The notes beneath the pieces were generated by a model, which worked only from the letters and a program-made list of their open reading frames with translations, ran no database searches and was not told the DNA's origin. A program made the translations under genes and the position numbers. Positions 31,213-51,489 of a DNA stretch of 64,000 nt are shown here, one piece after another. The DNA lies in assembly GCA_016188065.1 (NCBI GenBank), contig JACPIN010000005.1:13646-77645 (forward strand), in the 5' to 3' direction. How positions within the stretch are numbered: the stretch's first letter is position 1; the number at the start of each line of letters is the position of its first letter. The stretch comes from Candidatus Woesearchaeota archaeon. Its GTDB lineage: Archaea > Nanobdellota > Nanobdellia > SCGC-AAA011-G17 > ARS1403.

Positions 31213-31850
31213 TATCTTACCTTCTCAAATTTTTCTGCATACCTGCATTTGTTCTTTATGCCATAATATCTTGCTCTAAATATTACCGGGAGAAACTGCA
31301 GATAAATTGAAAACCATTGGCTTCTGTGCTGTTTTAGTATTTTCATTTTTTTCCAGAAATAATTTGAAATGTCAACATATATTATTGGCCTTTGCGCCAG
31401 CCTTGGCCTTGTCCAAATGCTAAAAGCATAAACCGGATATTTTTTCTTAAGTGAGTCTGCTACTGCCAATACTGCCTCGTTTACAGCCCTATGGTCTGGA
31501 TGCGTTTCTGAATCGGAGACTGTAATAATTTTTTCCGGCTTGTGCATTTCTATTAATTCTTTTATCTTGCCTCTTATGTTTTTCTCCTCTATCTCTTCCT
31601 TAATGCTCATGTCCTTTAAATCAAAATAGATTAGTTTCTTTAGTCCTATTTTTTTTGCTACCTTTTCAGTTTCTTTTTCCCTTATATCTTTAATAACTTC
31701 TTCTTTAAAATGGGGATGCGACATCGCTCCCTTTGAGAAAACTACCTGAATGACTGACTTGCCCTCGTCGATTAGTTTCAGGGCAAAGCCCAGCCCCCCG
31801 ATAGTGAGATCGTCGTCGTGCGGACAGAAAAATATCACATTTTTTGTCAT
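31212..31850 (-). CDS. PIG-L/LmbE-family N-acetylglucosaminyl deacetylase
   Basis: 212 aa; FFCPHDDDLTIGG (HPDDE-type zinc site) and HPDHRAV. Confidence 0.8.
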   Translation of the reverse strand: MTKNVIFFCPHDDDLTIGGLGFALKLIDEGKSVIQVVFSKGAMSHPHFKEEVIKDIREKETEKVAKKIGLKKLIYFDLKDMSIKEEIEEKNIRGKIKELIEMHKPEKIITVSDSETHPDHRAVNEAVLAVADSLKKKYPVYAFSIWTRPRLAQRPIIYVDISNYFWKKMKILKQHRSQWFSIYLQFLPVIFRARYYGIKNKCRYAEKFEKVR

Positions 31851-31873
31851 TTTTATTTTTGGATTGTGTTGAA

Positions 31874-31989
31874 TGCGTCGGCCGGGATTCGAATTTCCGA
31901 ACCTATAAAGGCTTCCCGGATCATCGCCTTGGAAGGGCGAAATTTCAGCCCGTTTGTTTTATGACGCCTGGCCATTGAACTACCGACGC
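31874..31989 (-). tRNA. tRNA-Gly(UCC) with two predicted non-canonical introns (D-loop and T-loop)
   Basis: On the minus strand: acceptor GCGTCGG/CCGACGC; intact anticodon hairpin TCGCC-CTTCCAA-GGCGA; T stem CCGGG...CCCGG interrupted by about 21 nt before TTCGAAT; about 22 nt of extra sequence in the D loop. Exact splice boundaries are uncertain. Confidence 0.45.
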
Positions 31990-32022
31990 TCATTATGCTG
32001 GAAGAATTTTTAGTTTTTAAAA

Positions 32023-34605
32023 TTATTGTTTCTTGCTGTTTAATTTACTGAATGCATATTCTACCTGCTGCCTGCTCCACCCTCTTTCCAGCAAAGAATC
32101 AGCAATCTTCTCCTCATCGTATCCTTTATCCAGTGCTGATTTTATGTATGACCTGACTTTTGCCAACTCTACTCCTGACTTGAACGGAGATTTCTTGAAT
32201 CTTGAAGAAAGTAAATTTATCACTTCGTATAATTTTAGCTTCTGATAGAGCTTAAATTTATAAAATGCAAATCCGAGCCCTAAAATTAAAATTACTGTGA
32301 CTATAAATGGAATCCATGGAAATCCAGATACAACTACTTTTTCTTCTCTGCAATCCTCTGGGCAGGAGATAATGTCCTCTGCTGGATTGCAAACTCCATC
32401 GCCGCAGTTGAAGGGGATTAAGCTTGGAGAAAGCTCTTTTGGAATTACAACCAATACAGCATCTTTAACACTATTAATATTGTTGGAATGCAGCTTGTAG
32501 GAAAATGAAAATGAGTCTTTTAAAACTGGTATTGTGAACTTTGCACTTTGATAATCCTGCAGCCTTGTTATTTCTGGAAATGAATCTGTGAACTCAATTT
32601 TGTCTTGCGAAGATGCCAGCGAAGTTGGAATTAACTCAATTATGATTGCTTCCCTTATTTCCAGCGGAGTTGTTATAGTTTTCTTTACTAAAATAAAGCT
32701 TTCCTGCTTATTTGGATATGATAATGAAACTGCTGTTGCCGCCACTTCTTTCTGAAGCCTTGAATTTAATTCCTGCAATGTAGCCTTGTAGCTTTCTGTC
32801 TCAAGACCATATAACTTGTTAGTTTCTTCAACTGAAAGATAGGGTGTTATCGTTATTTTATTTACAGCTGTTATTGACGTCGGTATTGAATTTATGAGGT
32901 CATTAACTTCCTCTTCTGTCAATGTTGTTGACGATGACAGCGTTGAAATAGAACTATCTATTTTTTTACCTAAAGCAAGGCTTTCAAAAATCTCTTTTGT
33001 TGCCGGCATGGATAATTTATCTTTAATTGACTGCAGCCTTGAGATTGCTTCCTGAACTAACTCTGTTTTTGCCTTCTCTGAAAATATTTCTACCTGCAGC
33101 GTTTTTTCATCTGATATTCCATTTTCGTCTGTGACTATTAATTTAACTAAATAAACTTTTGGAAGTAGATATGAATGCGTTGTTGTCTTTGCATTAGCTG
33201 TAGTGTTGTCGCCAAAATCCCAGCTGTATGCCAGTTTGGAATCTGATTTTGAGCTTGATGCGTCGAATGTTATTGGCGTCAGCGTTGGTGCAAATTGCTG
33301 TGATATGTTAAAACCTGCTGCTGGCGCTGAGACTACTTGTATGTTTGCAGTTGCTGCTTCAGCCCCATACTCGACTTTTAATGTATAATTTCCAAGGTTT
33401 TTAGGAGCAAAAAGATCAAATTTTGAAACGGGAATTACTGCTTTTGATGATAGTTTATAATATGGCTTTTCTCCTTGTGAGTTCACTCCCAGCAAAAACT
33501 TATTTCTATTATAGGATTGCCCATCTTCAAGAGTTTCTGTGTAAGACAAATCATGGATCTTTACATTGTTTCCATTTTTAGCTGTCACATTAATTGGGAT
33601 TATACAGAAATCATCTTGATATGTACATGCCTGCAGGAAATTTGCGATTGCGTCTTTGAAATATTTTTCTTGAATTGTGTTTGATTCGAAATATTCCAGA
33701 GATTCTTGCAGCGTTGTTATGAAATTTGAAGATTTTGCCTTTATTGCATAATCTGTGTTTTGTATTTTGCTGCATGACGAAGCTGTGCATCTATATCCTT
33801 GTGAGTTAGATACAGAGTCATTTACAGCTAAAACAATTCCTGCTGAAGGCGCTGTCAGGCATATTTTATAATCTCCTTCATTAATTGGAGCAGAAGTTGA
33901 AATCGTACATTCTATTTCGGTAAATGTTTGCTGCAAAGAACTGCATGATTGCAGATTTGTTTCTATTCCTTGTATATATATTCCTAAACTTGGTGGGGCG
34001 GTTATTGATTTTTTTATTGCTGAGCTAATTCTGAATGTGTCTGATTTGTTCAAAAATATTTGCTGGCAGGTTCCTGTAGAATCCAAATTCAATTCTGTTG
34101 CATCGGCTGCATTAATTTCTGCTCCTTTATATTGATTCACATTCCAATCGATAACTGCCGGTGATTTTCCCTGGAATTCCCAGTCTATTATCCCATCATT
34201 GCCTACATCCACTCTTGGAGTGTCTGGATAATTTGCATCCGAATTTGATATATTGAATTTTGCATCAATGCCAATTGTCGAACCTTTTTTTATCCTGATT
34301 CCCGTTAGAAAGTTTGACGAGTTTATTTCTGTTGCTGTTGCTCCTGTGTAAACAAAATACTCTGAAGACTTTTCCTCGCATCCAGATGTGCAATTTATTA
34401 CTTGCTGTATCTGCTTTTCTTTTGAAACTGAATTTATTGAAACCTTTATTGTAGAATCTTTGCTGTAAGCCCCTTCCTGCAAGATAAGATTTCCCGATAA
34501 TTGCTTTTCCTTTCCTGCTTTTGACTCGTTGAAATCAAATGAAACAGCCATAGCCGTGCTTGCAAAAGCTATTAAGACAATCAAAAAGACTAGTTTCTTT
34601 AGCAT
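32023..34605 (-). CDS. Large secreted cell-surface protein with PKD domain and C-terminal TM anchor
   Basis: 860 aa; signal peptide; PKD-like segment (PITFDASSSKSDSKLAYSWDFGDNTTANAKTTTHSYLLPKVYLVKLIVTDENG); C-terminal TM (IPFIVTVILILGLGFAFY) plus cytoplasmic tail. Confidence 0.55.
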   Translation of the reverse strand: MLKKLVFLIVLIAFASTAMAVSFDFNESKAGKEKQLSGNLILQEGAYSKDSTIKVSINSVSKEKQIQQVINCTSGCEEKSSEYFVYTGATATEINSSNFLTGIRIKKGSTIGIDAKFNISNSDANYPDTPRVDVGNDGIIDWEFQGKSPAVIDWNVNQYKGAEINAADATELNLDSTGTCQQIFLNKSDTFRISSAIKKSITAPPSLGIYIQGIETNLQSCSSLQQTFTEIECTISTSAPINEGDYKICLTAPSAGIVLAVNDSVSNSQGYRCTASSCSKIQNTDYAIKAKSSNFITTLQESLEYFESNTIQEKYFKDAIANFLQACTYQDDFCIIPINVTAKNGNNVKIHDLSYTETLEDGQSYNRNKFLLGVNSQGEKPYYKLSSKAVIPVSKFDLFAPKNLGNYTLKVEYGAEAATANIQVVSAPAAGFNISQQFAPTLTPITFDASSSKSDSKLAYSWDFGDNTTANAKTTTHSYLLPKVYLVKLIVTDENGISDEKTLQVEIFSEKAKTELVQEAISRLQSIKDKLSMPATKEIFESLALGKKIDSSISTLSSSTTLTEEEVNDLINSIPTSITAVNKITITPYLSVEETNKLYGLETESYKATLQELNSRLQKEVAATAVSLSYPNKQESFILVKKTITTPLEIREAIIIELIPTSLASSQDKIEFTDSFPEITRLQDYQSAKFTIPVLKDSFSFSYKLHSNNINSVKDAVLVVIPKELSPSLIPFNCGDGVCNPAEDIISCPEDCREEKVVVSGFPWIPFIVTVILILGLGFAFYKFKLYQKLKLYEVINLLSSRFKKSPFKSGVELAKVRSYIKSALDKGYDEEKIADSLLERGWSRQQVEYAFSKLNSKKQ

Positions 34606-37832: not shown

Positions 37833-38010
37833 ATTTATAAATGATAAGAGATATATATTGAAAGAGGTGATTATTTAATGGTTGATGCTAATACAATTAT
37901 GCTTTATGTTATTGTTGGAGCAGTTTTCGGCATTGTTTACGGCTTGAGAAGGATCTATGTTATTGAGAGAAAAATAGATGCTATCGATAAAAGAATTGCA
38001 CAAGTATTGG

Positions 38011-38766
38011 TCAAGAAGAGGAAGAGATAAATTCCTTTCTTGCTTTTTCTAAGGTTTCTGGTGTGCCTATATCGAAATATTTCCCTCCAATCTTAACTCC
38101 ATAAATCGTATCTTTTTTATAAAGCCACTGTAAAAAATACCCGGGGGCATCTGGATTATTACCTTCGTTCAAATACAATTTAATTTTATTAATTGATTTT
38201 TTCTTTAGGAGATAAACTACATGCGCAATGAGTTTTGATTTTGGATTCTCTGGCTTTTCTATCAATGAAATAATTTTAGAGTCTCTGTCCAAATCTACTA
38301 CCCCATGTTTTTTTGCTTGCTCTAATGTAGGCAATTCGACTATTACTATAACATTTTCATTTTTTTCTTTGAAATAATCGTAAACCGGATTTAGGCTTGA
38401 ACTGAACAAATTATCTCCGGCGATAATAAGAACATCTGAATTAATATTTTCTGAACTCAAAACAAGATTTATATCTCCTATAGCTCCAAGCTTATCTTCT
38501 TCATGCAGTGTACCATCATTAATTATCTTTATATCTAATTTTGTTTTCAAATTATCTTTCCATCTGACAAAATGATTACAGTAGCGATTATTTGTCACGA
38601 CATAAACTTTGTTTATTTCTTTAATAGGCTCTAATTTCTCGACGATGTTTGTTATCACTGGCTTTCCTCCCACCTCCAGCAACGGCTTTGGGAAATTTTT
38701 TGTTAATGGATATAATCTAGTACTGTATCCTGCTGCCAGTAAAATTACATCTATATCCTTTTTCAT
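38011..38766 (-). CDS. Sugar-phosphate nucleotidyltransferase (NDP-sugar pyrophosphorylase)
   Basis: 251 aa; ILLAAGYSTRLYPLT (the GxGTRLxPLT signature). Confidence 0.8.
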   Translation of the reverse strand: MKKDIDVILLAAGYSTRLYPLTKNFPKPLLEVGGKPVITNIVEKLEPIKEINKVYVVTNNRYCNHFVRWKDNLKTKLDIKIINDGTLHEEDKLGAIGDINLVLSSENINSDVLIIAGDNLFSSSLNPVYDYFKEKNENVIVIVELPTLEQAKKHGVVDLDRDSKIISLIEKPENPKSKLIAHVVYLLKKKSINKIKLYLNEGNNPDAPGYFLQWLYKKDTIYGVKIGGKYFDIGTPETLEKARKEFISSSS

Positions 38767-39632
38767 CTTATTTTCAACCCTCCGTTTAAAATTAGCTGAA
38801 TTATTTTTATATTATTCTCTTCGAATACTGGCTTTAATTTATTTTCCAGATCCAGAACTATGGCTGCCCCTCCAGACCCTGTTTGATTTGCAAACCCTTT
38901 ATTTTTCAATATTAAATCCTTTACGAGCTTATCCTCTTTTGTCAACCCGAGAGTTGATTCCCTGATTTCCCAGTTGTTATTCATCAGCAACCCTAACCTT
39001 TTCCAATCCATTTTTTGGAGTGCTGCATGCGCATCTAGTGTTATCTCCCTTGTTTTTTTCATGAGAGAGATAAATTCTTCACTGCCCTTTTTCTTTCCAT
39101 TATTATGGATGTCTTTTGAAGTGTTATTTTTTCCATAATAGACTATGTACATTCCCTGAGGGATTGATGTTAGCTTTTGGCAGGTAAAATTTTTACAGTC
39201 AATCAATGAGGAGCCAAAAACTGCAACGGCCCTGTCCTGCCATCCTGCATTTATTTTTAATTCTCTTTCTATCTGCAGTGCATGCTTTGAGATATCTGTC
39301 AGGGAAAGATTCAAATTGAATCTCTTATTCAAACATGCTATTAATGAAACTAGAATTGCTGCTGACCCTCCAAGACCGCACTTGAATGGAATATCCGACG
39401 AATAATCTATTTTTAAAGGCGCAGCTATATTGAAATGCTTTAGTGCCTGATGTATAAGCTTATGAGTTGAGTCTAGATTAGTTTCAGAATTAATTATGAG
39501 CTTATTTGAATCATCTAATTTCACTATGGCTTTGTTTTTTATTGAATAAGCAAGGACTAGCGCATCTTCCAAGTAAACATCTCCTGGATTTCCTGTAACT
39601 GCTGCCCTTCCTGTCGCCTCTGCCTCTATCAT
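38763..39632 (-). CDS. GHMP-family sugar kinase
   Basis: 289 aa; PFKCGLGGSAAILVSL GHMP ATP-binding motif; coupled to the downstream NDP-sugar pyrophosphorylase, consistent with a sugar-1-kinase. Confidence 0.7.
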   Translation of the reverse strand: MIEAEATGRAAVTGNPGDVYLEDALVLAYSIKNKAIVKLDDSNKLIINSETNLDSTHKLIHQALKHFNIAAPLKIDYSSDIPFKCGLGGSAAILVSLIACLNKRFNLNLSLTDISKHALQIERELKINAGWQDRAVAVFGSSLIDCKNFTCQKLTSIPQGMYIVYYGKNNTSKDIHNNGKKKGSEEFISLMKKTREITLDAHAALQKMDWKRLGLLMNNNWEIRESTLGLTKEDKLVKDLILKNKGFANQTGSGGAAIVLDLENKLKPVFEENNIKIIQLILNGGLKIR

Positions 39633-39685
39633 CGAAAATTTTTCTTAAAGATATGTTTAAATAACTTTTCTTTAATTTTTATTTT

Positions 39686-40096
39686 ATGCAACAAGTTTAT
39701 TTACATGCTTTATTTGCTTTTGCATTAGCAGCAATATTGTATCCTTTTATCGGCAATTACAGCATTGTTGTTTTCCTGAGCGGATTTGTCTTTGACATTG
39801 ACCACTACATCTATTACGCTGCCAAAAAAAGAGATTATAATCTTATGAACGGGTATTTTTATCACGTCCCCGGAAGCAAGGTTCATGAGGAGCACAGCGA
39901 TTCACTTCATATCTTTCATACTTGGGAGATGTGGCTGCTGCTTTTTATTCTTGGTCTTTTGATACACGAGATATTTCTATTCACATTAATAGGAATTATA
40001 TTTCACATGATTTTTGACTGGGGATATTTGCTTTTCAACAGCGATGCACTAGGCGAGAGAGCTTGGTCATTAATCGGATGGATTTCAAGAAACTAA
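39686..40096 (+). CDS. Small His-rich membrane protein (possible membrane-bound metal-dependent hydrolase, DUF457-like)
   Basis: 136 aa, 4 TM; His-rich loops (HYIYY, HEEHSDSLH, FHMIFDWGY). Confidence 0.3.
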   Translation: MQQVYLHALFAFALAAILYPFIGNYSIVVFLSGFVFDIDHYIYYAAKKRDYNLMNGYFYHVPGSKVHEEHSDSLHIFHTWEMWLLLFILGLLIHEIFLFTLIGIIFHMIFDWGYLLFNSDALGERAWSLIGWISRN

Positions 40097-40097
40097 A

Positions 40098-40106
40098 TTT
40101 TATAAA
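40098..40106 (+). promoter_or_regulatory. Archaeal TATA box for tRNA-Ser
   Basis: TTTTATAAA about 27 bp upstream of the tRNA start at 40129. Confidence 0.45.
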
Positions 40107-40128
40107 GCGGGATTTCTTGTTTTCTTAT

Positions 40129-40248
40129 GCCGAGATCGCATAATCTGGTATTGCGCAGGTCTTGAATGAAACTTTTAGAAAAAGCTTCACCAAAAATAAG
40201 ATAACCTGTTCCCGAGAGGGTATCTGGGTTCAAATCCCAGTCTCGGCG
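40129..40248 (+). tRNA. tRNA-Ser(UGA), class II, with a 36-nt canonical (37/38) intron
   Basis: Acceptor GCCGAGA/TCTCGGC; 3-bp D stem with 11-nt loop; anticodon arm CAGGT-CTTGAA[intron 40167-40202]A-ACCTG; variable arm TCCCGAGAGGGTA; T arm TCTGG-GTTCAAAT-CCCAG. Confidence 0.75.
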
Positions 40249-40290
40249 CGCCATCAAAAAGATTTATATAGAGGTGGATAATAATTATAT

Positions 40291-40731
40291 TTGATGAAAA
40301 AGAGTGTGGCAAGAGCTGAAAGGAAAGACAAAGGGGTAATTTTCGTGTTTTCTATCATTGCATTATTCATTGTAGCTTTGGTTGGATTTAATCTTGAAAA
40401 CGTTACTGCCGGAGCAATAAGGAGTACCAAGACAACTGTAGATGTATCTCCAAAGTTTTTAAATGCGGGAGAGTATGTTACTGTAACTGTAAATCCTGGA
40501 AAGTATTGCGTTAACAGCGTAGTCGGATTCTATGATGATTCTGGATTGAGAAGGGCAACTGCAAGGACTGAAATTGGGAGCCCTAAAAAAGTCTGCCAAC
40601 AGTTCAGCGTCAAATATAAAACAAGCTCTGACTGGAAACCTGATGAAGAAGAGTCTGGAGTGTTTTTAGTAAAAGTATTTGATTACGGAAAGGAAGATTA
40701 TATTACAACTGCTTTCACAATAAATGAGTGA
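40291..40731 (+). CDS. Small secreted/anchored Cys-containing protein, paralog 1 of 3
   Basis: 146 aa; N-terminal TM/signal; conserved block VGFNLENVTAG...VDVSPKFLNAGEYVTVTVNPGKYCVNSVVGFYDD shared with the next two ORFs; stop overlaps the next start. Confidence 0.5.
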   Translation: MMKKSVARAERKDKGVIFVFSIIALFIVALVGFNLENVTAGAIRSTKTTVDVSPKFLNAGEYVTVTVNPGKYCVNSVVGFYDDSGLRRATARTEIGSPKKVCQQFSVKYKTSSDWKPDEEESGVFLVKVFDYGKEDYITTAFTINE

Positions 40732-41191
40732 GGAAATGGAAAAAAATAAATTAATCATCGGTGTTATTGCAGTTATATTGATTGCAGTGATAGGGTTTAA
40801 TTTCGGTAATTTAACTGGGAAGGTTACTAAGAATCTATCTCCGGATGCAACCGTATACCCAAATGTTGTTAAGGCTGGCGAAAAGATAAATGTAAAAGTG
40901 AAGCCAAATAATGGGTGTGTTGATCCTGAAATAGGATTTTATTTTTCTGGAAAATTGAGTGACGGCAGCATTACAAGCAGCGGCGGAAGGAAAGGTGTTG
41001 TGTCGCATAAAGGCGGATATAAGGTATGCAAAAATGATGGATTAATATTAGACAGGGATGGAACATTTACTGTGAGCTATAAGACCGAGCCTGGCTGGGA
41101 TGGAGAGCATTTTGCCAAGGTTTATTATTGGAAGAATAGAAATACAAAAGATTCTGTAAATGCATACTTCAATGTTTTGCCGAAAGAATGA
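40724..41191 (+). CDS. Small secreted/anchored Cys-containing protein, paralog 2 of 3
   Basis: 155 aa; IGFNFGNLTGKVTKNLSPDATVYPNVVKAGEKINVKVKPNNGCVDPEIGFYF; overlaps both neighbours (translational coupling). Confidence 0.5.
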   Translation: MSEEMEKNKLIIGVIAVILIAVIGFNFGNLTGKVTKNLSPDATVYPNVVKAGEKINVKVKPNNGCVDPEIGFYFSGKLSDGSITSSGGRKGVVSHKGGYKVCKNDGLILDRDGTFTVSYKTEPGWDGEHFAKVYYWKNRNTKDSVNAYFNVLPKE

Positions 41192-41649
41192 TGAAAATAA
41201 GCAATATTTTAATAGCTGCAGTTTTTTTAGTATTGATATCTTTATTTTCTTTAAATTTTGAAGAGCTAACCGGATATGTCCCTAAGCAAAGAATTCCTGA
41301 TGTCAGTGTAATTCAGCAGGTTGTTGATGCTGGCGAATACATTGATATTAGAGTTAAAATAAACGGATTCTGCATCGACCCTAAATTTGAAATTTTAACT
41401 AATGTAGATCTGCATAAAGACTATAAGACATATTTACCGACGGAAGATGATTGCGCCAAGCAGAATTTTAGGACGTGCAAGAGCCATAAGTACTGCCCTG
41501 GAGATATTAAAGACGATATCTTGGAATTGAGCTATAAAACACAGCCTGACTTTTATGGAGACTATAAAGTTAGAGTGAAATACATAGAGAAACCTGGACA
41601 GGATGAGTTCTACATGCCTTATATTGAAGCTGGATTCAAAGTTGTGTGA
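41188..41649 (+). CDS. Small secreted/anchored Cys-containing protein, paralog 3 of 3
   Basis: 153 aa; LFSLNFEELTGYVPKQRIPDVSVIQQVVDAGEYIDIRVKINGFCIDP; extra Cys cluster CAKQNFRTCKSHKYC. Confidence 0.5.
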   Translation: MMKISNILIAAVFLVLISLFSLNFEELTGYVPKQRIPDVSVIQQVVDAGEYIDIRVKINGFCIDPKFEILTNVDLHKDYKTYLPTEDDCAKQNFRTCKSHKYCPGDIKDDILELSYKTQPDFYGDYKVRVKYIEKPGQDEFYMPYIEAGFKVV

Positions 41650-41723
41650 AAAGATTTATTAATCCCCTATGAAATCCTTTTTCCTTTAGTTCTTTTTCAG
41701 CTTTATTCAAACACCATTTAACT

Positions 41724-42320
41724 TTATTGGAGGCTTGTGACATTTTCGATTATTTTTACTAATTTTTCATATCCTTGTAAAACATAACAATTTTTAATAA
41801 TATTCAGAACAACCTCATCTTTTTTCTTTAAGTTTTTAATTAAATCGTCTGGAGTCTGCTTCACTATATGCATGATTTTAGCAGATATTCCTCTTCTTTG
41901 GTTAATCTCTTTTTCTATCATACTATATCTCTCCTTTTTAAAAACAATTAATAAATCAATGTCGTTAGCGGTTTTAGGATTTCTTATAATAGATCCAAAT
42001 ATTATTGCAATCTCAATACATTCAAGCAATTCTTTGAATTCTGACAACCATCTTGATGCCTTCTCTCTTGCCTCTTCCATGAGAAGTATAGACATTAACT
42101 TGATTGTATATTCATCACTAAAATTTATTTTATAAAAAACAGCTTTCCCAAACTCTCTGCTGGTAAGGATATTCTGCGATTTAAGATTCTTGAGCATCTT
42201 TAAAGCCCCCCTCGGAGTTATCCCTATTTTTTTTGAAAGAGAATTGGCGTTATAATTATTAGTAAAATCTTTAAACAAAGTTAATAGTATTTCACTTTCC
42301 TTCTTTGTTAACCTTTTCAT
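41724..42320 (-). CDS. HTH plus minimal nucleotidyltransferase fusion (paralog of 27362..27910 and 46226..46744)
   Basis: 198 aa; N-terminal wHTH (GALKMLKNLKSQNIL); AIIFGSIIRNPKTANDIDLLIVF NTase motif. Confidence 0.65.
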   Translation of the reverse strand: MKRLTKKESEILLTLFKDFTNNYNANSLSKKIGITPRGALKMLKNLKSQNILTSREFGKAVFYKINFSDEYTIKLMSILLMEEAREKASRWLSEFKELLECIEIAIIFGSIIRNPKTANDIDLLIVFKKERYSMIEKEINQRRGISAKIMHIVKQTPDDLIKNLKKKDEVVLNIIKNCYVLQGYEKLVKIIENVTSLQ

Positions 42321-42362
42321 ATATCGGAACTATTTGTTCATATATCGGAACTATTTGTTCAT
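42321..42362. repeat. Perfect tandem duplication of a 21-bp unit (ATATCGGAACTATTTGTTCAT x2) between a TATA-like element and the start codon of the HTH-NTase gene
   Basis: Copies at 42321-42341 and 42342-42362; a TATA-like ATATATAAA follows at 42361-42369; the gene start codon is at 42318-42320 on the minus strand. Confidence 0.8.
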
Positions 42363-42431
42363 ATATAAATCTTTGCATAATTTTTGAATCTAAGTACTTG
42401 AATTTAGTATTGTTTATTTGATGAGACTTAA

Positions 42432-42653
42432 GATACTGCAAAAGAAAAAATAAGTAGAGAATTTATTGTTAAAGAAACTAAATACTATGTCCATGTTTCG
42501 GCATTAGTTAATAGAAAATTAGGCGTGTTAGAATCAGTTATAGAATACCTGAAAGAAAATTATGACTTGAATTATTCTGAGATTGGAAGACTGCTGGGAA
42601 GAGACCCGAGGACGATTTTGACTGCTTATAATCGAACTAGAAAAAAAGAATAA
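42432..42653 (+). pseudogene. ATG-less (5'-truncated) paralog of the small HTH protein encoded at 44005..44235
   Basis: Open frame from the stop at 42429 to the TAA at 42651-42653 encodes ...YYVHVSALVNRKLGVLESVIEYLKENYDLNYSEIGRLLGRDPRTILTAYNRTRKKE, about 80% identical to the 44005 protein but with no in-frame ATG/GTG start. Confidence 0.45.
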
Positions 42654-42665
42654 TTTTCTTTGATT

Positions 42666-43931
42666 TTATTTTAGTAACCATTTCCATAAGGGAATATATT
42701 TTATTTTTTTATTTTTGATTTTTTCTTCTCCTTCTTTGTCTTCTGTTATAACAAGAAGATTAGAGCATTTTAATTCTTTTGAGGCTTTTAGCAATGCTCT
42801 TAATTCTCTTTTTTTTGTATCGATATCAGAGATATCATAACATACCTGAATTAATTGTCCGACTTTTAGTTTTTCTTTTACGACAAAGTCCACTTCTTCA
42901 TGTTGGATATTTTTCCAGTAATAAAACTCAAGATTTGGATTGAAAGATTTTTTCCTTAGAAATTCTAAAGCAACTAAATTTTCATAGAGTCTTCCATAAT
43001 CCTGCGAATGCTTTATCGATACATTATTTATAATTCCAGTGTCTATAGCATAGATTTTTTTCTCGCTTTTTTCAATTTCTACTGGTTTAAAGGAAAACCT
43101 GTTTAGTAAAAAAATCATATAAGCTTCTTCTAGATAAGAAATATAATTTTTTATAGTATGTTCACTTTTAATATTGAATTGCTTCTTTATTTTGTTATAA
43201 CTAATCTTTCTTCCCGGGTTGCTTAGTAAAACTATAGCAATTTCTCTAAATGTTTTCTTATATGCTATGTCATATCTACTAATTATATCTCTCTCCACTA
43301 TCCTTCCGTATAGTTCTCTTAAATATCTCTTTGGATCTTCTTTTTCTACAACAACTTCAGGAAAGCCCCCGTTATTAAGATAGTTTTCAAGTTCCCTCTT
43401 TATAGCACCTTTGCCAATCGTGGTTTCGGTATCTTCTTTGAAATCCATCGCTTTTAAATATTCTTTAAAACTAAACGGAAATAATTCTATTGTTATGTGC
43501 CTGCCTGTTAAATGTGTAGCTAATTCTTTACTTAGTAACCTTGAATTACTACCAGTGATATAAATATTAAATCCTTGCCTTTTTAGCCTGTTGGAGAAGA
43601 GCTCCCACTTATCCAAATTTTGAATTTCATCAAAGAGAATATTTTTGACATTTTTCCCGTAAATTTCCTGGAAGGAGGATAATATCTCATCAGTATCAAA
43701 TTTGGTTAGCCTTTCATCATCAAAGTTCATATAAGCAAATTTTTCATTTTGTAGAAAGGCGTAAGATAATACTGATTTCCCACATCTTCTTGCTCCGATG
43801 ATTACTTTTATTAATTTAGAGGCTACTACATCTTTAAATGATTCATGAGCTTCCCTTTCAACAATCTTCTTTTTTTTTAACCAATCATCTAATTCTCTTT
43901 TCTGATCTCTTAATAAAAGCGTTAATTCCAT
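42666..43931 (-). CDS. AAA+ ATPase of the AAA_14 + DUF4143 family (COG1373-like), copy 1
   Basis: 421 aa; Walker A GARRCGKS, Walker B ILFDEIQ, DUF4143-like C-terminal half; the last ~40 aa are near-identical to copy 2. Confidence 0.75.
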   Translation of the reverse strand: MELTLLLRDQKRELDDWLKKKKIVEREAHESFKDVVASKLIKVIIGARRCGKSVLSYAFLQNEKFAYMNFDDERLTKFDTDEILSSFQEIYGKNVKNILFDEIQNLDKWELFSNRLKRQGFNIYITGSNSRLLSKELATHLTGRHITIELFPFSFKEYLKAMDFKEDTETTIGKGAIKRELENYLNNGGFPEVVVEKEDPKRYLRELYGRIVERDIISRYDIAYKKTFREIAIVLLSNPGRKISYNKIKKQFNIKSEHTIKNYISYLEEAYMIFLLNRFSFKPVEIEKSEKKIYAIDTGIINNVSIKHSQDYGRLYENLVALEFLRKKSFNPNLEFYYWKNIQHEEVDFVVKEKLKVGQLIQVCYDISDIDTKKRELRALLKASKELKCSNLLVITEDKEGEEKIKNKKIKYIPLWKWLLK

Positions 43932-44004
43932 AGATTTATGGCGTATTTTAACTATATAAATCTTTGTTTTTATAATACGTAAAAATTATAAATTTTACGC
44001 ATTT

Positions 44005-44235
44005 ATGGTTTTTATGATAATTAACTGTAATGGGTTAATTTTAGACGACTACAAAAACCTCCCAACCTTTTCTGTTCCTGTTTCTGCATTGACCGATAGA
44101 AAACTTGGTGTTCTTGAGAGTGTTGTGAAATTCTTGAAGGAAAATTACGAGCTGAATTATTCTGAGATTGGAAGATTATTGGGAAGAGATCCAAGAACTG
44201 TTTGGACTGCTTATTCGAGAGGGAAGAAGAATTAG
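44005..44235 (+). CDS. Small HTH protein with a DnaA-domain-IV-like motif
   Basis: 76 aa; LNYSEIGRLLGRDPRTVWTAYSRG resembles the DnaA C-terminal (F)GGRDHTTV(IHA) DNA-binding signature. Confidence 0.5.
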   Translation: MVFMIINCNGLILDDYKNLPTFSVPVSALTDRKLGVLESVVKFLKENYELNYSEIGRLLGRDPRTVWTAYSRGKKN

Positions 44236-44254
44236 ATATTATAGTAGAATAGAT

Positions 44255-45550
44255 TCATACTTGTAATAGCCACTTCCATAAGGGAATAAATTTTATCTTT
44301 TTATTTTTGATTTTTTCTTCCCCTTCTTTGTCTTCGGTTATAACTAAAAGATTATTACATTTTAGTTCCTTTGAAGCTTTTAATAGGGATTTCAATTCCC
44401 GTTCTTTTGTGCTAAGCTCTTCCAAGGAACAGCATACCTGAATTAGTTCCTTTACCTTTTTATTTTCAATAACAACGAAATCAGTTTCTTTTGCATTAGA
44501 GGATTTGTGATAGTAAACCTCTTTATTCTTTCTCAACAATTCAATAAAAACCAGATTTTCCATAAGTTTGTCCATGTCTTTGATCCCATTAATTGTCAAT
44601 AAACCATTATCTATAATATACATCTTTGGCAGAGATTGCTCTTTTTCCCTGTAAGAATATGAGAATTTCCTTAATGGGAAAGCGAAGAAAACATCATTTA
44701 AAGCATCAACATAATTATAAAGGGCATCTTTACTTGCTTTAATTCCTTGAGACTTTACAAAATTGTAAAATTTATGGACAGAAAATTCTCTTGCAATGGA
44801 ATTTATTAAAGTATTTATGAGTATCCTCAAAAGCTTTATATTTCGAATCTTATATCTTTCAATTACATCTCTAACAATTGTTGTTTCAACTATATCACGA
44901 TGAATTTTTTCTCTCTCTTTTTCATATAAAGCCACTTCAGGATATCCCCCTTTTTCAAGATAGTTTCTGAAATGGCTAAGAAGATTCCTCTTCCCTGATT
45001 TGGAAAGATATTTTTCGATTTTGAAACTCTTAAAGTGCAGATACTCTAAGAAAGAAAGGGGAAAAATTGTATAGGTTAGAGTTCTTCCTCTCATAGAGGT
45101 GGCAATTTCTCGGCTTAGGAGTTTTGAGGAAGAGCCTGAAAGAAATAGCTGTAATCTTTCATTGTCAATCAGGGTTCTTACTGAATTTTCCCATCCATCA
45201 ACCACTTGTATTTCATCAAAAAAAACCCAGCATTTCTTTTTTTCATTGTCAGGATATATCTCGAAAAAGGTATCAATTAAAACCAAGATGTCCTTCCCAG
45301 TGATCCCTTCAAGCTCTGCTCTTTCGAAGTTAATATACAATAATCTCGTTTTTTCAATTCCGTTGTTAATAAGTTCTGTTATGACTTGGAATAACCTAAA
45401 AGTTTTCCCGGACCTTCTAGGGCCAATGAGAGATATTGACCTCCTTAAGGGGATATAATCGGGGATATTTAAACTTCTTTTAATTAGATGGGGCAAATCC
45501 TTTTCATGAAAATCCTTTATAATTTCTCCGAGATTGGATTTAGTTATCAT
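44255..45550 (-). CDS. AAA+ ATPase of the AAA_14 + DUF4143 family, copy 2
   Basis: 431 aa; Walker A GPRRSGKT, Walker B VFFDEIQ; C-terminus LKASKELKCNNLLVITEDKEGEEKIKNKKIKFIPLWKWLL nearly identical to copy 1. Confidence 0.75.
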   Translation of the reverse strand: MITKSNLGEIIKDFHEKDLPHLIKRSLNIPDYIPLRRSISLIGPRRSGKTFRLFQVITELINNGIEKTRLLYINFERAELEGITGKDILVLIDTFFEIYPDNEKKKCWVFFDEIQVVDGWENSVRTLIDNERLQLFLSGSSSKLLSREIATSMRGRTLTYTIFPLSFLEYLHFKSFKIEKYLSKSGKRNLLSHFRNYLEKGGYPEVALYEKEREKIHRDIVETTIVRDVIERYKIRNIKLLRILINTLINSIAREFSVHKFYNFVKSQGIKASKDALYNYVDALNDVFFAFPLRKFSYSYREKEQSLPKMYIIDNGLLTINGIKDMDKLMENLVFIELLRKNKEVYYHKSSNAKETDFVVIENKKVKELIQVCCSLEELSTKERELKSLLKASKELKCNNLLVITEDKEGEEKIKNKKIKFIPLWKWLLQV

Positions 45551-45670
45551 GGTATTTCATAGAAGGAAATTATTTATAAATGTTTCCTTTTATAAAATCT
45601 GTAATTTATTGTAATGTCTTCCTTAATTTTTAAGTGGATTAATTCCTTCTTCAGAATCATTTCAACAACT

Positions 45671-45688
45671 ATTTCCATAGGGAATATA
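45671..45688. repeat. Decayed third copy of the 3' end of the AAA_14/DUF4143 ATPase gene
   Basis: ATTTCCATAGGGAATATA matches CATTTCCATAAGGGAATA(T/A)A at the stops of both ATPase genes (42669-42690 and 44268-44290), but no ORF follows. Confidence 0.4.
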
Positions 45689-45714
45689 GATTATCAAGGT
45701 TTTAAAAAGACGAA

Positions 45715-46131
45715 GTGTTGACCGTAAGCGTTGATTTATTAATTGGTGGAATGGGACTAAGGCAGACAGATTCATCTTTAAGTTTTGATATTATGAATAA
45801 GAATTCCACCCAGAAAGTTATAAATGGTCTGGAGAAAGAAATTAAAATTAAGATTCCTTCAAAAGAATTGTTAATTGCCATGAAATTTCATTCTGGAAGA
45901 TGATCCGATATTAGAGATATTATAGCCTTGATGCCATGCAATGAGGAAAAACTAAAAGTGCACATAGCAAAAGGAAATATAAAATTGCTAAAAGAAAATG
46001 TAGACAGGCAGAAAAAGTTCTTGGAAAAACCACAATTTGATGACAGCTTTAAGGTAATTTTTGGAATCAAAAGTTATAATGAGAAGAAGGTAAAGGAGGC
46101 AAAAAAAATTAATAAATACAGAGTATATTAA
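45715..46131 (+). pseudogene. Single reading frame interrupted by an in-frame TGA (45901-45903); unknown small protein, possibly a decayed partner of the adjacent NTase
   Basis: ORFs 45715..45903 and 45928..46131 are in the same frame (offset 213 nt) with an open frame between them except for one TGA. Confidence 0.3.
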
Positions 46132-46225
46132 AGTTATAAATATGCAGCAGAAGACTAAATCCTCAAATTTTTATCAGGATTCTGTTTTTTAACATCGCCC
46201 TTTTTTAAAAAAATTTCAAAATCTT

Positions 46226-46744
46226 TTACCATGATCCTTCCAGCACAATTCCATTAGTAAGACTTGCTTTAAATTCATTACTTATTTTATTTAAATCGAA
46301 TTCATGCAGATTTATGTGTTTTCTTAAAATCTTTTCATATTTTCCCATATTTAAGTCAATTTTTTTCTTTGTAAATACTGCTATATCTATATCAGACTTT
46401 TCTATATCATCCCCCCTGGAGAAACTTCCAAATAATATTATATTTTTTGGATGGTTGTATAAATTTGAGATATAATCTATAACACCTGATTTATAAATAT
46501 TTTCAAGATTGTGTAGACGCTTGAACCTTATAAAATTCATATTTTCCCTATCTGCCTGCACTTTAGTTATTACCTTTCCCTTAGTTTTTATAATCAATTT
46601 TTCTCTCGATAAAATATCTGTAGAAGCAACTATTGTAGGCATAGAAAACTTCAACAACCTAGAAAGTTCCCTAAGATGAAATTCTTTAGCGGGATTATCA
46701 AAAAATATATCTAATACCTTCTGAATGGTAGATTTTTCTATCAT
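46226..46744 (-). CDS. HTH plus minimal nucleotidyltransferase fusion (third paralog)
   Basis: 172 aa; wHTH N-terminus (FHLRELSRLLKFSMPTI); IILFGSFSRGDDIEKSDIDIAVF. Confidence 0.65.
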   Translation of the reverse strand: MIEKSTIQKVLDIFFDNPAKEFHLRELSRLLKFSMPTIVASTDILSREKLIIKTKGKVITKVQADRENMNFIRFKRLHNLENIYKSGVIDYISNLYNHPKNIILFGSFSRGDDIEKSDIDIAVFTKKKIDLNMGKYEKILRKHINLHEFDLNKISNEFKASLTNGIVLEGSW

Positions 46745-46916
46745 ATGATATATAAAACTGACAGATGGTATATAAATCTATCTATTTGTGTGTAATGTGT
46801 GTTTGTGCTATCCCGAAGCTATGTTGTGTAATCCTGAAATTATCCCCATCGATAGATGTTTTGAGCTCTCTTAATGTGAGGAAAAGTATTTAAATTTCAA
46901 AGAAAAACTAAAAGCA

Positions 46917-47765
46917 ATGGTTATTGAAAATCTTGTAAACCCTGCCAAGGCTGAAGGCCGGCCGTGGGAGATGTTCTTCCTTGGGTTTTTATATTCTTCA
47001 GTTGCTGTTTTCCTGAGCTTGTGGATATTTCAGGATTATTCTAGTTTAGTAATGGTGTTCCTGACTGTTTTTGCAAGTGTTCCGGTTGTATATACCTTAA
47101 TTGCTATTGAAGAAAAAAAAGATACTAGTAATAAGAGTGAAAGATTTTTGCTGAAGGAGCATAGCAAAGCGCTTGCTGTCCTAATCTTTCTTTTTTTGGG
47201 ATACACCGTCGCTTTTTCTCTATGGTTTGTTGTCCTTCCTGAAAACACTGTGCAAAACATGTTCAATGTCCAGCTTGAAACAATTAGAAGCATAAATGCG
47301 GGAGTTACAAGCTTTAGCACTGGAACTGGCTTTGTGATGCAGATTTTTAGCAATAACATTAAAGTTATGATCTTCTGCATAATGTTTGCCTTCTTATTTG
47401 GTGCCGGAGCGATCTTTATCCTGACCTGGAATGCTTCTGTTATTGCTGCTGCCATTGGAACTTTTATCAGGAGCAATGTTGCCAGCTATGCCGAAGCTGC
47501 CGGGCTTGGAAAATTAACCGGATACTTTCATATTGGAAGCATTGGACTGATGAGATATATGATTCACGGGATTCCGGAAATACTTGCTTACTTCGCTGCT
47601 GGCCTTGCAGGGGGAATAATTTCTGTTGCTGTAATAAGGCATGATTTTGGAAGCAAGAATTTTAACAAGATTTTGTACGACTCAATGGATTTAATTGTCA
47701 TAGCGATATTAGTTTTGTTTATCGCTGCCCTGATTGAAGTGTTTATCACTCCTGTTTTATTTTAG
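46917..47765 (+). CDS. SpoIIM/DUF95-like polytopic membrane protein
   Basis: 282 aa, 6-7 TM, topology and length typical of the DUF95 family; weak assignment. Confidence 0.35.
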   Translation: MVIENLVNPAKAEGRPWEMFFLGFLYSSVAVFLSLWIFQDYSSLVMVFLTVFASVPVVYTLIAIEEKKDTSNKSERFLLKEHSKALAVLIFLFLGYTVAFSLWFVVLPENTVQNMFNVQLETIRSINAGVTSFSTGTGFVMQIFSNNIKVMIFCIMFAFLFGAGAIFILTWNASVIAAAIGTFIRSNVASYAEAAGLGKLTGYFHIGSIGLMRYMIHGIPEILAYFAAGLAGGIISVAVIRHDFGSKNFNKILYDSMDLIVIAILVLFIAALIEVFITPVLF

Positions 47766-48730
47766 TCGTAATCATTTTTTAACTTTAATAATTCAAGAGA
47801 GATTGCCAGAATTAAAGGGCCTATTATTAATCCTATAAATCCCAGAAGATTTAAGCCGCCCAGAATTCCAAGAAGGATTATTGTTGGATGGATGTTTGCT
47901 TTTCTTCCAATTAACTTCGGCTTGATTAAATTATCTACGGTTCCTACTACTAAAGCCCCGAAGATAATAATCCCTACTCCGGAAAAATAATCCTGCTGGA
48001 TAATTTGAATAATTCCCGCTGGAAGCCAGATAAGTGCAGTGCCTGCAAAGGGGATTAAAGAAGCGAATGCCATGACAAAGCCCCATAATATTGGAGAAGG
48101 AATGTTGAAGATAGCAAAGCCTATTCCGCCTAAAACCCCCTGTATTATTGCTGTGAGGATTATGCCGTAGATTAGTGCGCCAGTTATTGACTTGAATTTT
48201 TCCAGGATCAATGTTTTTTTTCTCTCGTCTAGAGGGAGGTGTTTTTTTACAAAACTAACTAATGAAGAAGATTCTTTTAACAGATAATAAGTCAGGAAGA
48301 CAATTATGAATAAATTCAATGCCCTTTGCGGGATTGAAAGAATAAAATTTGAAGCGGACTTTGCTATGAATAATAATGTATTATTAGCTATGCCTGAAAT
48401 GTATTTCTGGAAATCGGATTCTAGATACTTTGTTGCTATCTGCAGCAGATTCTTTTCCTTCACTTTTTGGTAGACTGCGACTGACTCGTGCGCCAGCGAA
48501 TTTGCTATTATTAAAGAGGGGATTATTGCTAAAAACAAGATGATTAGGAGTGTGAATGCTGAGCTGATGCTTTTACTGTTAATCTTGCTGTTTAATTTTG
48601 CATATAATGGGGAGAAAACAAATGCCAGGACGAAACTGAATAATATTGCTGATATAAACGGCTTGACTGTTAAGAAGATTAAATAAGCTAACAGCAGAGA
48701 GATTAAGATTGAGAAAGATTGCCTTTTCAT
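47762..48730 (-). CDS. AI-2E (PerM/UPF0118) family transporter
   Basis: 322 aa, 8 TM; conserved C-terminal block DNLIKPKLIGRKANIHPTIILLGILGGLNLLGFIGLIIGP typical of UPF0118. Confidence 0.7.
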   Translation of the reverse strand: MKRQSFSILISLLLAYLIFLTVKPFISAILFSFVLAFVFSPLYAKLNSKINSKSISSAFTLLIILFLAIIPSLIIANSLAHESVAVYQKVKEKNLLQIATKYLESDFQKYISGIANNTLLFIAKSASNFILSIPQRALNLFIIVFLTYYLLKESSSLVSFVKKHLPLDERKKTLILEKFKSITGALIYGIILTAIIQGVLGGIGFAIFNIPSPILWGFVMAFASLIPFAGTALIWLPAGIIQIIQQDYFSGVGIIIFGALVVGTVDNLIKPKLIGRKANIHPTIILLGILGGLNLLGFIGLIIGPLILAISLELLKLKNDYD

Positions 48731-48750: not shown

Positions 48751-48785
48751 TTTTATAAACATTGCTTTTTTAATCGCTTTGCTCT
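48751..48785. repeat. Left copy of an about 35-42 bp imperfect direct repeat flanking the DUF433/DUF5615 pair
   Basis: TTTTATAAACATTGCTTTTTTAATCGCTTTGCTCT; the partner at 49439-49480 differs by a 7-nt insertion and one substitution. Confidence 0.7.
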
Positions 48786-48816
48786 CATGGACAACTACGT
48801 TTTCCATTGCCTTTCC

Positions 48817-49173
48817 TTAATCGATTTTTCTCATCCTAATTCCTGCTTCTGAGATAACTAAAAATTTACCACTTAATTCAACCCCCAGTTTTTCTATGAC
48901 ATATAATAAAAGCTTTAGCCTGTTTTCTGGATTGTCTATGTTTAACCTTAAAAGAATGACTCCTTTTGAATGCTTTTTTCTTCTGAAAACTATCTCTCCG
49001 AAGTCTTTATCATTTGTTATCAAAATCCTGTCATCTTTTAATGCCTCCTCTAGAACAATCTCATCATCTGCACCAAGCAAATCTTCACTAATGTATTCCG
49101 TGTCATATCCTTTTTCCCTGAGCGATGAAACTAATTTTCTACCAGTACTTTCATCAACTAGAAACTTTAGCAT
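48817..49173 (-). CDS. DUF5615-like PIN-related putative nuclease (toxin-like partner of DUF433)
   Basis: 118 aa; LKFLVDESTG...ILITNDKDFGEIVF pattern of DUF5615/Mut7-C-like proteins; overlaps the DUF433 gene by 20 nt. Confidence 0.6.
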   Translation of the reverse strand: MLKFLVDESTGRKLVSSLREKGYDTEYISEDLLGADDEIVLEEALKDDRILITNDKDFGEIVFRRKKHSKGVILLRLNIDNPENRLKLLLYVIEKLGVELSGKFLVISEAGIRMRKID

Positions 49174-49417
49174 ATCTCTTTTTTTCTAAGAAGGGCAATA
49201 CTGTTTCTGAACCGACAATTTCAGCACCATACATTAATGCTGCCTTAATGTCCTTCTTATTTATATGAGGATAATCTTCCAATATTTCTCTTTCAGTCAT
49301 TCCTTGTGCAACTAACTTAATAAGTAGGTCCACCGGAATCCTTGTGCCTTTTATTACCGGTTTTCCTACCATAATCTTTGGATTGACAACGATCCTATTT
49401 AATAAGCCTTGATCCAT
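49154..49417 (-). CDS. DUF433-family small protein (antitoxin-like partner)
   Basis: 87 aa; PVIKGTRIPVDLLIKLVAQGMTEREILEDYPHINKKDIKAAL matches the DUF433 signature. Confidence 0.65.
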   Translation of the reverse strand: MDQGLLNRIVVNPKIMVGKPVIKGTRIPVDLLIKLVAQGMTEREILEDYPHINKKDIKAALMYGAEIVGSETVLPFLEKKRYAKVSS

Positions 49418-49438
49418 ATTATTTTATGAAACCTTTAA

Positions 49439-49480
49439 TTTTATAAACATTGCTTTTTACTTTTTTAATCGCTTCGCTCT
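49439..49480. repeat. Right copy of the direct repeat flanking the DUF433/DUF5615 pair
   Basis: TTTTATAAACATTGCTTTTTACTTTTTTAATCGCTTCGCTCT. Confidence 0.7.
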
Positions 49481-49524
49481 AATAAGACACCTGCGGTTTC
49501 TTATGAAAACTTCCCATCTTCCTT

Positions 49525-49700
49525 TTTCTTTCAGAAAGAAACACTAATTGAACAAAGTTCAATTGTGCGCCATTGAGTTTCACTCAATTAGCGAATCAAG
49601 CCCGAAAAGAAACATTTTAGCTTCCAATTTTTCTTTGGACACGATTTCTTTTTCCTAAAAAGAAAGTGTGATGGAAGGCAGATGGAAACCTTGGTGTCCA
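49525..49700. promoter_or_regulatory. Cluster of AT-rich palindromes in the divergent intergenic region between the TA-like pair and the retropepsin/RimK operon
   Basis: P1 TTTCTTTC-A-GAAAGAAA (49525-49541); P2 AATTGAAC-AAA-GTTCAATT (49546-49564); P3 ATTGAGT-TTC-ACTCAAT (49572-49588); P4 TTTCTTTTT-CCT-AAAAAGAAA (49645-49665); outer inverted repeat TGGACAC/GTGTCCA (49636-49642 and 49694-49700). Confidence 0.6.
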
Positions 49701-49755
49701 TGTTTTCCTAAACTTTTGTGGAAAAATTTAAATAAGATTTTATCAATCAAAAGTT

Positions 49756-50085
49756 ATGTTAAAAGACAATGAAATTCTTGGATTGGTTGAAAAAGTGAAA
49801 ATAAAAGGCAGGGAGATTTTAGCAAGAGTGGATACTGGGGCCAGAAGATGCAGCATTGACAAGAAGCTTGCAAATGAGTTGAAGCTAGGCCCTGTCATTG
49901 GGAATCGGAAATATAGAAGCGCCCATGGGAAAAGTATTAGGCCTGTTGTTATCGAGGAGATTGAGCTGAAAGGAAAGAAATTAATTGTAAAGATAAACTT
50001 AAGCGATAGGAGAGAGATGAAATACAACTTTTTAGTGGGAAGGGAAGCTTTAAAAAAAGGTTTTCTGATTGACCCTAGCAGATGA
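49756..50085 (+). CDS. Retropepsin-like aspartic protease (the so-called ATP-dependent zinc protease family commonly paired with RimK)
   Basis: 109 aa; ARVDTGARRCSI with a DTGA catalytic motif; immediately upstream of, and overlapping, the RimK-like gene. Confidence 0.55.
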   Translation: MLKDNEILGLVEKVKIKGREILARVDTGARRCSIDKKLANELKLGPVIGNRKYRSAHGKSIRPVVIEEIELKGKKLIVKINLSDRREMKYNFLVGREALKKGFLIDPSR

Positions 50086-51161: not shown

Positions 51162-51489
51162 TTATTTACTTGATTCTTTAATTACAAGAAAAAGAAAACT
51201 ATCACGCTAAATAAAGCCAATAGAAAATAAATTAATACCTTTTTTTTGATGATATAAAAAGGATAAATGCCTCTAACAATAAAATCCAGTTTTGAACACT
51301 TATTATTTCAGGCATATTTTGCTCCTGCGATTAATCCAAATCCAACTGTTGCCAAGACCCCTGCAAGATAGAGATTCCTTGCTTATCCATCATTATAATG
51401 TAGGTTAGCCTGTATTTATTATTTTTGGCCTTTGCCAATTATTTTATCTTAAGAAAGATATTTAAAGTTTTGTCTGGGCTGTTAAGGCA

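Follow-up and report, generated by a model that had tools for sequence, protein, structure and literature searches.

How does a toxin-antitoxin (TA) gene pair become part of a chromosome when it brings no mobility genes of its own? Such entries are poorly documented, least of all in archaea with leaderless transcripts, where a gene that arrives from elsewhere depends on a TATA box at a set spacing ahead of its start codon. The question is raised by a two-gene locus in a Candidatus Woesearchaeota archaeon (GenBank assembly GCA_016188065.1, contig JACPIN010000005.1), which we analysed within a stretch of 64,000 nucleotides, hereafter the window. An initial annotation of this DNA had placed a DUF433 gene and a gene for a PIN-like DUF5615 protein between two imperfect direct repeats, and had proposed a small mobile cassette that came in by site-specific recombination or with duplication of a target site. 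Both protein families, their coordinates and the two repeats were recovered in our analysis (Table 1).

Table 1. Features of the toxin-antitoxin locus, in the order of their positions in the window
Feature	Position	Strand	Remarks
AI-2E family transporter gene	47762..48730	-	host gene with duplicated promoter; PF01594, E 1.2e-49
Repeat copy 1, 35 nt	48751-48785	-	putative promoter of the AI-2E transporter gene
31-nt element CATGGACAACTACGTTTTCCATTGCCTTTCC	48786..48816	+	between toxin stop and copy 1; inverted copy of 49675-49702
DUF5615/Mut7-C PIN-like predicted toxin gene, 118 aa	48817..49173	-	Pfam PF18480, E 5.3e-21
DUF433 (COG2442) predicted DNA-binding antitoxin gene, 87 aa	49154..49417	-	Pfam PF04255, E 2.3e-24
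Repeat copy 2, 42 nt	49439-49480	-	putative promoter of the TA operon
Non-coding, lineage-specific spacer	49481..49674	-	from decayed promoter to copy 2; includes weak extension 49481-49500
Forward copy of 31-nt element	49675..49702	-	same place and orientation in TA-less L019
Decayed remnant of ancestral AI-2E promoter	49703..49726	-	TTTTTCCACAAAAGTTTAGGAAAA against TTTTTCCACAATGTTTATAAAA in relatives
TATA box TTTAAATA of divergent retropepsin-RimK operon	49727..49734	+	21 nt before ATG at 49756

We compared the two proteins with known TA families. The DUF433 protein matches PF04255 at 85.4 bits against a cut-off of 23.6, and the DUF5615 protein matches PF18480 at 75 bits and PF01927 at 32.6 bits. 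The two small genes are co-oriented, with the antitoxin gene first and the toxin gene second, and they overlap by 20 nt. In the predicted toxin, residues D7, D37, D55, D57 and E60 are all kept, and the same residues are invariant in 14 homologues. The pair is predicted to belong to the PIN-COG2442 family of VapBC-like type II TA systems, in which the antitoxin is a predicted three-helix DNA-binding protein and the toxin a predicted PIN-like RNase (PMC2701414). One studied pair of this type is VapBC10 from Synechocystis PCC 6803 (PMC3834315). Our pair resembles such systems in its two domain families, in having the antitoxin gene first, in its small overlapping genes and in the conserved PIN-like acidic residues. 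It differs from them in residing in a DPANN archaeon and in apparently forming a leaderless operon that, instead of having its own promoter, uses a copy of the one in front of a neighboring host gene.

The two repeat copies are assembled from the same two blocks, an exact 20-mer (TTTTATAAACATTGCTTTTT) and a 15-mer (TAATCGCTT[T/C]GCTCT) in which they differ by a single base. Copy 2 alone carries a 7-nt insertion, ACTTTTT, between these blocks, and the alignment of the two copies gives 34/35 identities and one 7-nt indel. Weaker similarity reaches about 20 nt farther outward from the copies, to positions 48804 and 49500. A local alignment of the 250 nt upstream with the 250 nt downstream of the gene pair scored 24, and the best of 200 shuffles reached 13.5. 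When up to three mismatches are allowed, each half of the repeat matches at these two places only on both strands of the 64-kb window, with 0.19 and 0.14 matches expected by chance.

What is the repeated sequence? A TATA-like box 20-24 nt before an ATG is the geometry expected of archaeal promoters that make leaderless mRNAs. Throughout the window, TATA-like octamers that end 20-24 nt before an ATG occur 16 times, compared with 0-3 times in any other 5-nt bin, and 19 of the 64 genes show such an octamer at this offset. On the minus strand, both repeat copies end in GCAATGTTTATAAAA, with TTTATAAAA at 49447-49439 in copy 2, followed by 21 nt to the DUF433 ATG at 49417, and at 48759-48751 in copy 1, followed by 20 nt to the AI-2E ATG at 48730; TTTATAAA stands 21-22 nt ahead of an ATG in both copies. 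Because TTTATAAAA is found 20-21 nt before an ATG, the usual place of a TATA box in this window, the repeat is likely to be the AI-2E promoter, present twice. Each of the two repeats would then represent the BRE/TATA promoter that belongs to the AI-2E gene, their use as promoters being deduced from their geometry. The core of this element, C[A/G]CAATGTTTATAAAA, is kept before AI-2E in the majority of orthologous loci; L014, L010, L019 and L021 have variants that differ at one base. Upon reading the sequence between the toxin gene and copy 1, we found no oligo-T terminator, and read-through from the toxin gene into AI-2E is thus possible. The initial annotation had named a duplicated promoter or terminator element at many unrelated loci as evidence against its proposal. 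Half of this applies: the repeat indeed appears to be a duplicated promoter, but it is confined to this locus, with no second genomic context for it in the 64-kb window. With up to two mismatches, CAATGTTTATAAAA is found in the two copies and at one unrelated site, which is no more than expected by chance and argues against a common element or a generic promoter motif.

We next consider the orthologous sites. Related Woesearchaeota contigs have a conserved gene order of STT3, RimK and retropepsin, followed by AI-2E on the opposite strand and then SpoIIM. In three of them (L014, L020 and L021) the site is empty: retropepsin and AI-2E are adjacent with their start codons 64-75 nt apart, and the spacer is a compact bidirectional promoter, ...CTATTTAAATTTTTCC[A/C][C/G]CAATGTTTATAAAATA..., with a single promoter copy. 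Small membrane-protein ORFs, one or two in number, separate retropepsin from AI-2E in L010 and L019. Besides the window, three or four orthologous sites are filled (L015/L016, L017 and L024). L024 has the order RimK, retropepsin, DUF433, DUF5615, AI-2E, and its gene pair is bracketed by a perfect 36-nt (36/36) direct repeat, TTCCTATTTAAATTTTTCCACAATGTTTATAAAATA, the downstream copy of which contains the toxin stop codon. Aligned with the one copy that L020 has at its empty site, this repeat shows a single substitution and a single 1-nt indel. In L015/L016, which are 96-97% identical to L024, the stretch common to both sides is 29 nt long, and in L017 the pair is located directly upstream of AI-2E. 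It is the comparison of the repeats in L024, L015 and L016 with the single copy in L020 that points to an insert with a duplicated target on the one hand and an empty site on the other. For the repeat of the window, alignment with the empty sites is confined to a core of 15-24 nt, and the remaining 20-odd nt are lineage-specific. Empty sites with one repeat copy and adjacent retropepsin and AI-2E genes had been named by the initial annotation as the place to look, and finding them in L014, L020 and L021 favors its proposal of an inserted pair with a duplicated target site, the target probably being the AI-2E promoter.

The DUF433 orthologues at the same locus share 87% (L017) and 77% (L015/L024) identity with the DUF433 protein of the window. 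The closest relatives of the toxin, at 69% and 77% identity, are likewise same-locus copies, and every other match is at or below 58%. In L017 (278-640), the orthologous toxin gene loses its reading frame past about residue 35 through a frameshift and stop codons, and the antitoxin gene is intact; as the coverage of this contig is only 2.7x, the interruption may be a sequencing error.

RimK identity to the window is 86% for L020 (empty), 86% for L024 (filled) and 84% for L019 (small ORFs), which puts filled and empty lineages at roughly the same distance from the window. Since the more distant L014, L010 and L021 also have no pair, its absence is probably the ancestral state. The comparators are genus-level relatives and not strains of the same species (RimK only 84-86%), and at this distance an insertion looks the same as ancestral presence followed by loss, and duplication at insertion the same as later copying of the promoter. 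All five of the five Logan contigs that encode an identical AI-2E protein carry the pair, and the collections searched contained no closer TA-less relative.

Taken together, we think it fairly probable that a promoterless TA operon was inserted at the AI-2E promoter with duplication of its target, that the event is old, and that the pair has been inherited with two promoter copies. The DUF433-DUF5615 operon would have entered between the TATA box and the start codon of AI-2E, in a recombinase-independent 'insertion with long target duplication', the AI-2E promoter being duplicated on entry. The upstream copy may now drive a leaderless DUF433-DUF5615 transcript, with translation of the two genes coupled through their 20-nt overlap, and the downstream copy would keep AI-2E expressed. 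Because the duplicated target is a promoter, the duplication would be functional, and it would solve the promoter problem for the insert and for the host gene alike. The insertion would then have been inherited vertically at this locus in several lineages, and recombination between the two copies could delete the pair. As our comparison is among genus-level relatives rather than strains, the event is likely to be old and overlaid by later changes.

A precedent exists in bacterial restriction-modification gene complexes, which are reported to produce long and variable target duplications on insertion and to carry no mobility genes (PMC2853133, Furuta et al. 2010); the same insertion mode is credited to Nobusato et al. 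2000, as cited in PMC2853133. The screen in that study selected inserts that are absent at the orthologous site, that have repeats of more than 30 bp which are unique in the genome and both align with the single empty-site copy, and that contain no integrase or transposase; no archaeal case passed it (PMC2853133). Our locus is similar in that its insert is a small addiction-type module that carries no mobility genes and that relatives do not have at the orthologous site. Its repeats exceed 30 bp, with 35 and 42 nt, or 54 and 62 nt when the weak extension is included, and the repeat has two copies in the 64 kb searched. Alignment with the single empty-site copy spans the whole repeat in the orthologous filled site of L024 and the 15-24-nt core in the window. 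The locus differs from the restriction-modification cases in that the cargo is a TA pair, the host an archaeon and the duplicated target a promoter. These findings suggest that TA pairs in DPANN archaea are likewise subject to the long-target-duplication route described for restriction-modification genes. Both the gene family and the insertion pattern are known, and the combination of a TA pair, a DPANN host and a duplicated leaderless promoter would be a new example rather than a new kind.

A less probable course of events, to which we nevertheless give some weight, is that the pair was inserted without duplication, and that the AI-2E promoter was copied later, to a position before either DUF433 or AI-2E, by local duplication or gene conversion. 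Selection would have kept the second copy, since each leaderless unit needs its own TATA box. Such later copying is consistent with the lineage-specific sequence AGAGCRAAGCGATT... in both window copies, which is absent from L024, L020 and L014. It would also account for the decayed third promoter copy next to the retropepsin gene and for the downstream copies in L024 and L016, which extend over 36 and 29 nt, respectively, in two sequences that are 97% identical. What speaks against it is that the duplication in L024 directly meets the insert at each end and has the sequence of the empty site, as in a classical target duplication, and that a second, archaeal-looking locus, upstream of the arginyl-tRNA synthetase gene (ArgRS; L027-L029), also has a local duplication around the pair, of ~120-130 nt.

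Copies 1 and 2 of the window share 20-odd nt (AGAGCRAAGCGATTAAAAAAG) that are absent from L024 and L020, and an A-rich variant of the AI-2E promoter is common to the window, L017 and L019. Outside the 15-24-nt core, the sequence differs between lineages and is the same within a genome. Because copies in one genome are more alike than orthologues, homogenisation or re-duplication within lineages is likely, and the pattern points to gene conversion or re-duplication as the process that kept the two copies alike in each lineage; selection on promoter function probably contributed. The base differences between L024 and L016, despite their 97% overall identity, form a cluster at the outer edge of the downstream copy, which fits a conversion tract.

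Several further features are preserved in the window. In the decayed promoter that adjoins the retropepsin gene (49703-49726), TTTAGGAAAA replaces TTTATAAAA. About 220 extra nt are located between this remnant and copy 2, and the spacer therein (~170 nt) has no homologue in any fetched locus; it contains short palindromes at 49546-49564 and 49571-49589. TA-less L019 also has counterparts of the 31-nt element at 49675-49702 and of the promoter stretch at 49703-49726. The inverted 31-nt element at 48786-48816 matches L019 3026-3056 at ~29/32 positions by eye (BLAST 21/22 over the first 22 nt), and its inner 19 nt are the weak outer extension of the direct repeat. The spacer between RimK and STT3 (51180-51440, minus strand) holds a decayed remnant of a small membrane-protein ORF, ~75% identical to L019 3248-3438. 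Since the ORF is found between retropepsin and AI-2E in L019/L010, a short segment appears to have moved in the window lineage. The decayed promoter, the inverted 31-nt element, the ~220 extra nt and the displaced ORF remnant together indicate several rearrangements rather than one clean event.

The minus strand of 49481-49702 folds at -68.5 kcal/mol (z = -4.7), and 0/200 shuffles fold as well. This segment contains two similar palindromes, AATTGAAC-AAA-GTTCAATT and ATTGAGT-TTC-ACTCAAT, and its ends are inverted copies of the 31-nt element. Independent Logan assemblies from three to four samples (L001-L003, L006-L009) all break at 49511 and 50028. The shared break points suggest that strains vary, or that the assembly graph branches, in the retropepsin/spacer segment. 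The exact retropepsin protein has no database record.

It is also conceivable, if quite improbable, that the repeat is a shared operator, and that one regulator, for example the DUF433 protein, binds both promoters and couples AI-2E to the TA pair. Such an operator would be compatible with either origin of the second copy, by duplication at insertion or by later copying. The identity between the copies runs ~25 nt upstream of the TATA box, beyond the need of a basal promoter, and DUF433 has a predicted DNA-binding fold (PMC2701414). By eye, however, the segment common to both copies contains no palindrome or inverted repeat, and L024 and L017, whose orthologous sites are filled, do not share its upstream part. 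A GCGAAGCG motif found near a few other DUF433 pairs is accounted for by GC content and unrelated contexts and is attributable to chance.

We also considered what else could have carried the pair to its site. Direct repeats of 16-60 bp around an insert are typical of integrase-mediated integration, and TA cassettes are common in integron arrays. Our insert has flanking repeats in this size range, and it resembles integron cassettes, including the TA cassettes of chromosomal integrons, in being short, apparently promoterless as these often are, and bounded by repeats. Unlike in integrons, there is no IntI, attC structure or array at the locus, and the repeat is target-derived and locus-specific. 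Pfam scans of the genes from ~35 to 63 kb, corresponding to ~13 kb on either side of the pair, revealed no integrase or transposase. ARAGORN and Rfam found no tRNA gene at the junctions, Rfam found no attC site or other family at the locus, and a tRNA or attC target was consequently rejected. The repeat appears to be a host promoter that varies between lineages and does not travel with the pair, DUF433-DUF5615 pairs in other contexts have unrelated flanks, and no close DUF433 relative was found on viral contigs. The main idea of the initial annotation, in which the repeats are attL/attR-type sites of a site-specific, integron-like cassette moved by an integrase acting in trans, is thus the least probable of the explanations considered here. 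Mobility of the cassette at the present time is not supported either, as the closest pairs (69-87% amino acid identity) are found at the same locus in other lineages, no near-identical pair was found elsewhere, and the insert does not deviate from the average GC content of the genome. The pair is better described as an old insertion than as a demonstrably mobile one. A transposon or MITE-like element was considered in view of the 31-nt inverted pair (48786-48816 and 49675-49702), which brackets the insert, and was rejected, as one arm is present at the same place in TA-less L019; neither a target duplication outside the arms nor further arm copies were found in the window and the fetched loci.

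We also aligned upstream with downstream flanks for 28 DUF433-toxin loci, as a check on generality. Apart from the AI-2E locus, one locus showed a clear duplication: in L027-L029, which look archaeal and have the pair upstream of the arginyl-tRNA synthetase gene, ~120-130 nt of local intergenic DNA are present on both sides at ~72-78% identity. The pair itself is 94.7% identical between L027 (1097-1832) and L028 (2861-3594) and the flanks are only 75-78% identical; lineages may recently have exchanged the pair at a single locus. In L027, the upstream repeat and the pair are 800 nt farther apart. Several other candidates were rejected. The 16-nt repeat in L025 is borderline (shuffle maximum 15.5) and absent from the 84%-identical L064, and L065, a TA-less relative of L025, has other small ORFs at that site. 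The repeat in L058 is a hairpin-forming, REP/MITE-like element on a bacterial contig, and the 19-nt GC-rich repeat in L068/L070 is part of a hairpin element. In L068, which comes from a different Woesearchaeota genome, copies of the GC-rich sequence CCCAGTCCCGGCG stand on both sides of the pair (2100-2215 and 2859-2880; also in L070). The upstream copy in L068 forms a 12-bp hairpin with its complement, and CCCAGTCCCGGCG may represent a family of short repeat elements. The remaining loci showed no target duplication, borderline matches only, or repeats that look REP-type. Because the cases of L025, L058 and L068/L070 fail, flanking duplication is not established as a general rule.

It is still worth stating a broader proposal, which we regard as rather unlikely: that DPANN DUF433-DUF5615 pairs spread independently of recombinases, duplicating targets of tens to more than 100 bp and preferring promoter regions. 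In its favor are the two independent archaeal loci with a local duplication, at the AI-2E promoter and upstream of ArgRS (L027-L029), and the contrast between pair and flanks in L027/L028. If the proposal is correct, each insertion would provide the leaderless TA transcript with a captured host promoter, the host gene would retain its own copy, and the flanking copies would later permit homogenisation and clean loss.

Other inserts were seen near the conserved gene block. L010 (8069-9487; GCA_016181275.1) carries a different two-gene module on the other side of AI-2E, between AI-2E and SpoIIM, which consists of a 224-aa protein without a Pfam hit and an AbiEii-domain protein. Neither this AbiE pair nor the insert in L021 has a convincing flanking repeat.

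Several features elsewhere in the window deserve mention. The segment from SecDF to SpoIIM (38000-46750) contains two AAA_14/DUF4143 ATPase genes, two Pol-beta-type nucleotidyltransferase genes and several ORFs without Pfam matches, and looks like a variable island; in L014, SecDF is ~2.5 kb away from SpoIIM. A 120-nt tRNA gene, apparently with an intron, is found at 40129-40248 on the plus strand. A permissive local search with Rfam RF00005 gave it 44.6 bits; ARAGORN and the Rfam gathering run over the whole window missed it. On the minus strand at ~31851-31910, just upstream of the gene at 31212-31850, GGTTCGGAAATTCGAATCCCGGCCGACGCA resembles a tRNA T-arm together with the 3' end of the acceptor. 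The region 31840-32040 matched no Rfam model; the sequence may come from a fragmentary tRNA or from one that is unusual or split. Finally, a 21-nt unit, TATATGAACAAATAGTTCCGA, is tandemly duplicated on the minus strand at ~42321-42365, directly before the start codon of the gene at 41724-42320, and this duplication yields three in-frame ATGs just downstream of a TATA-like box.
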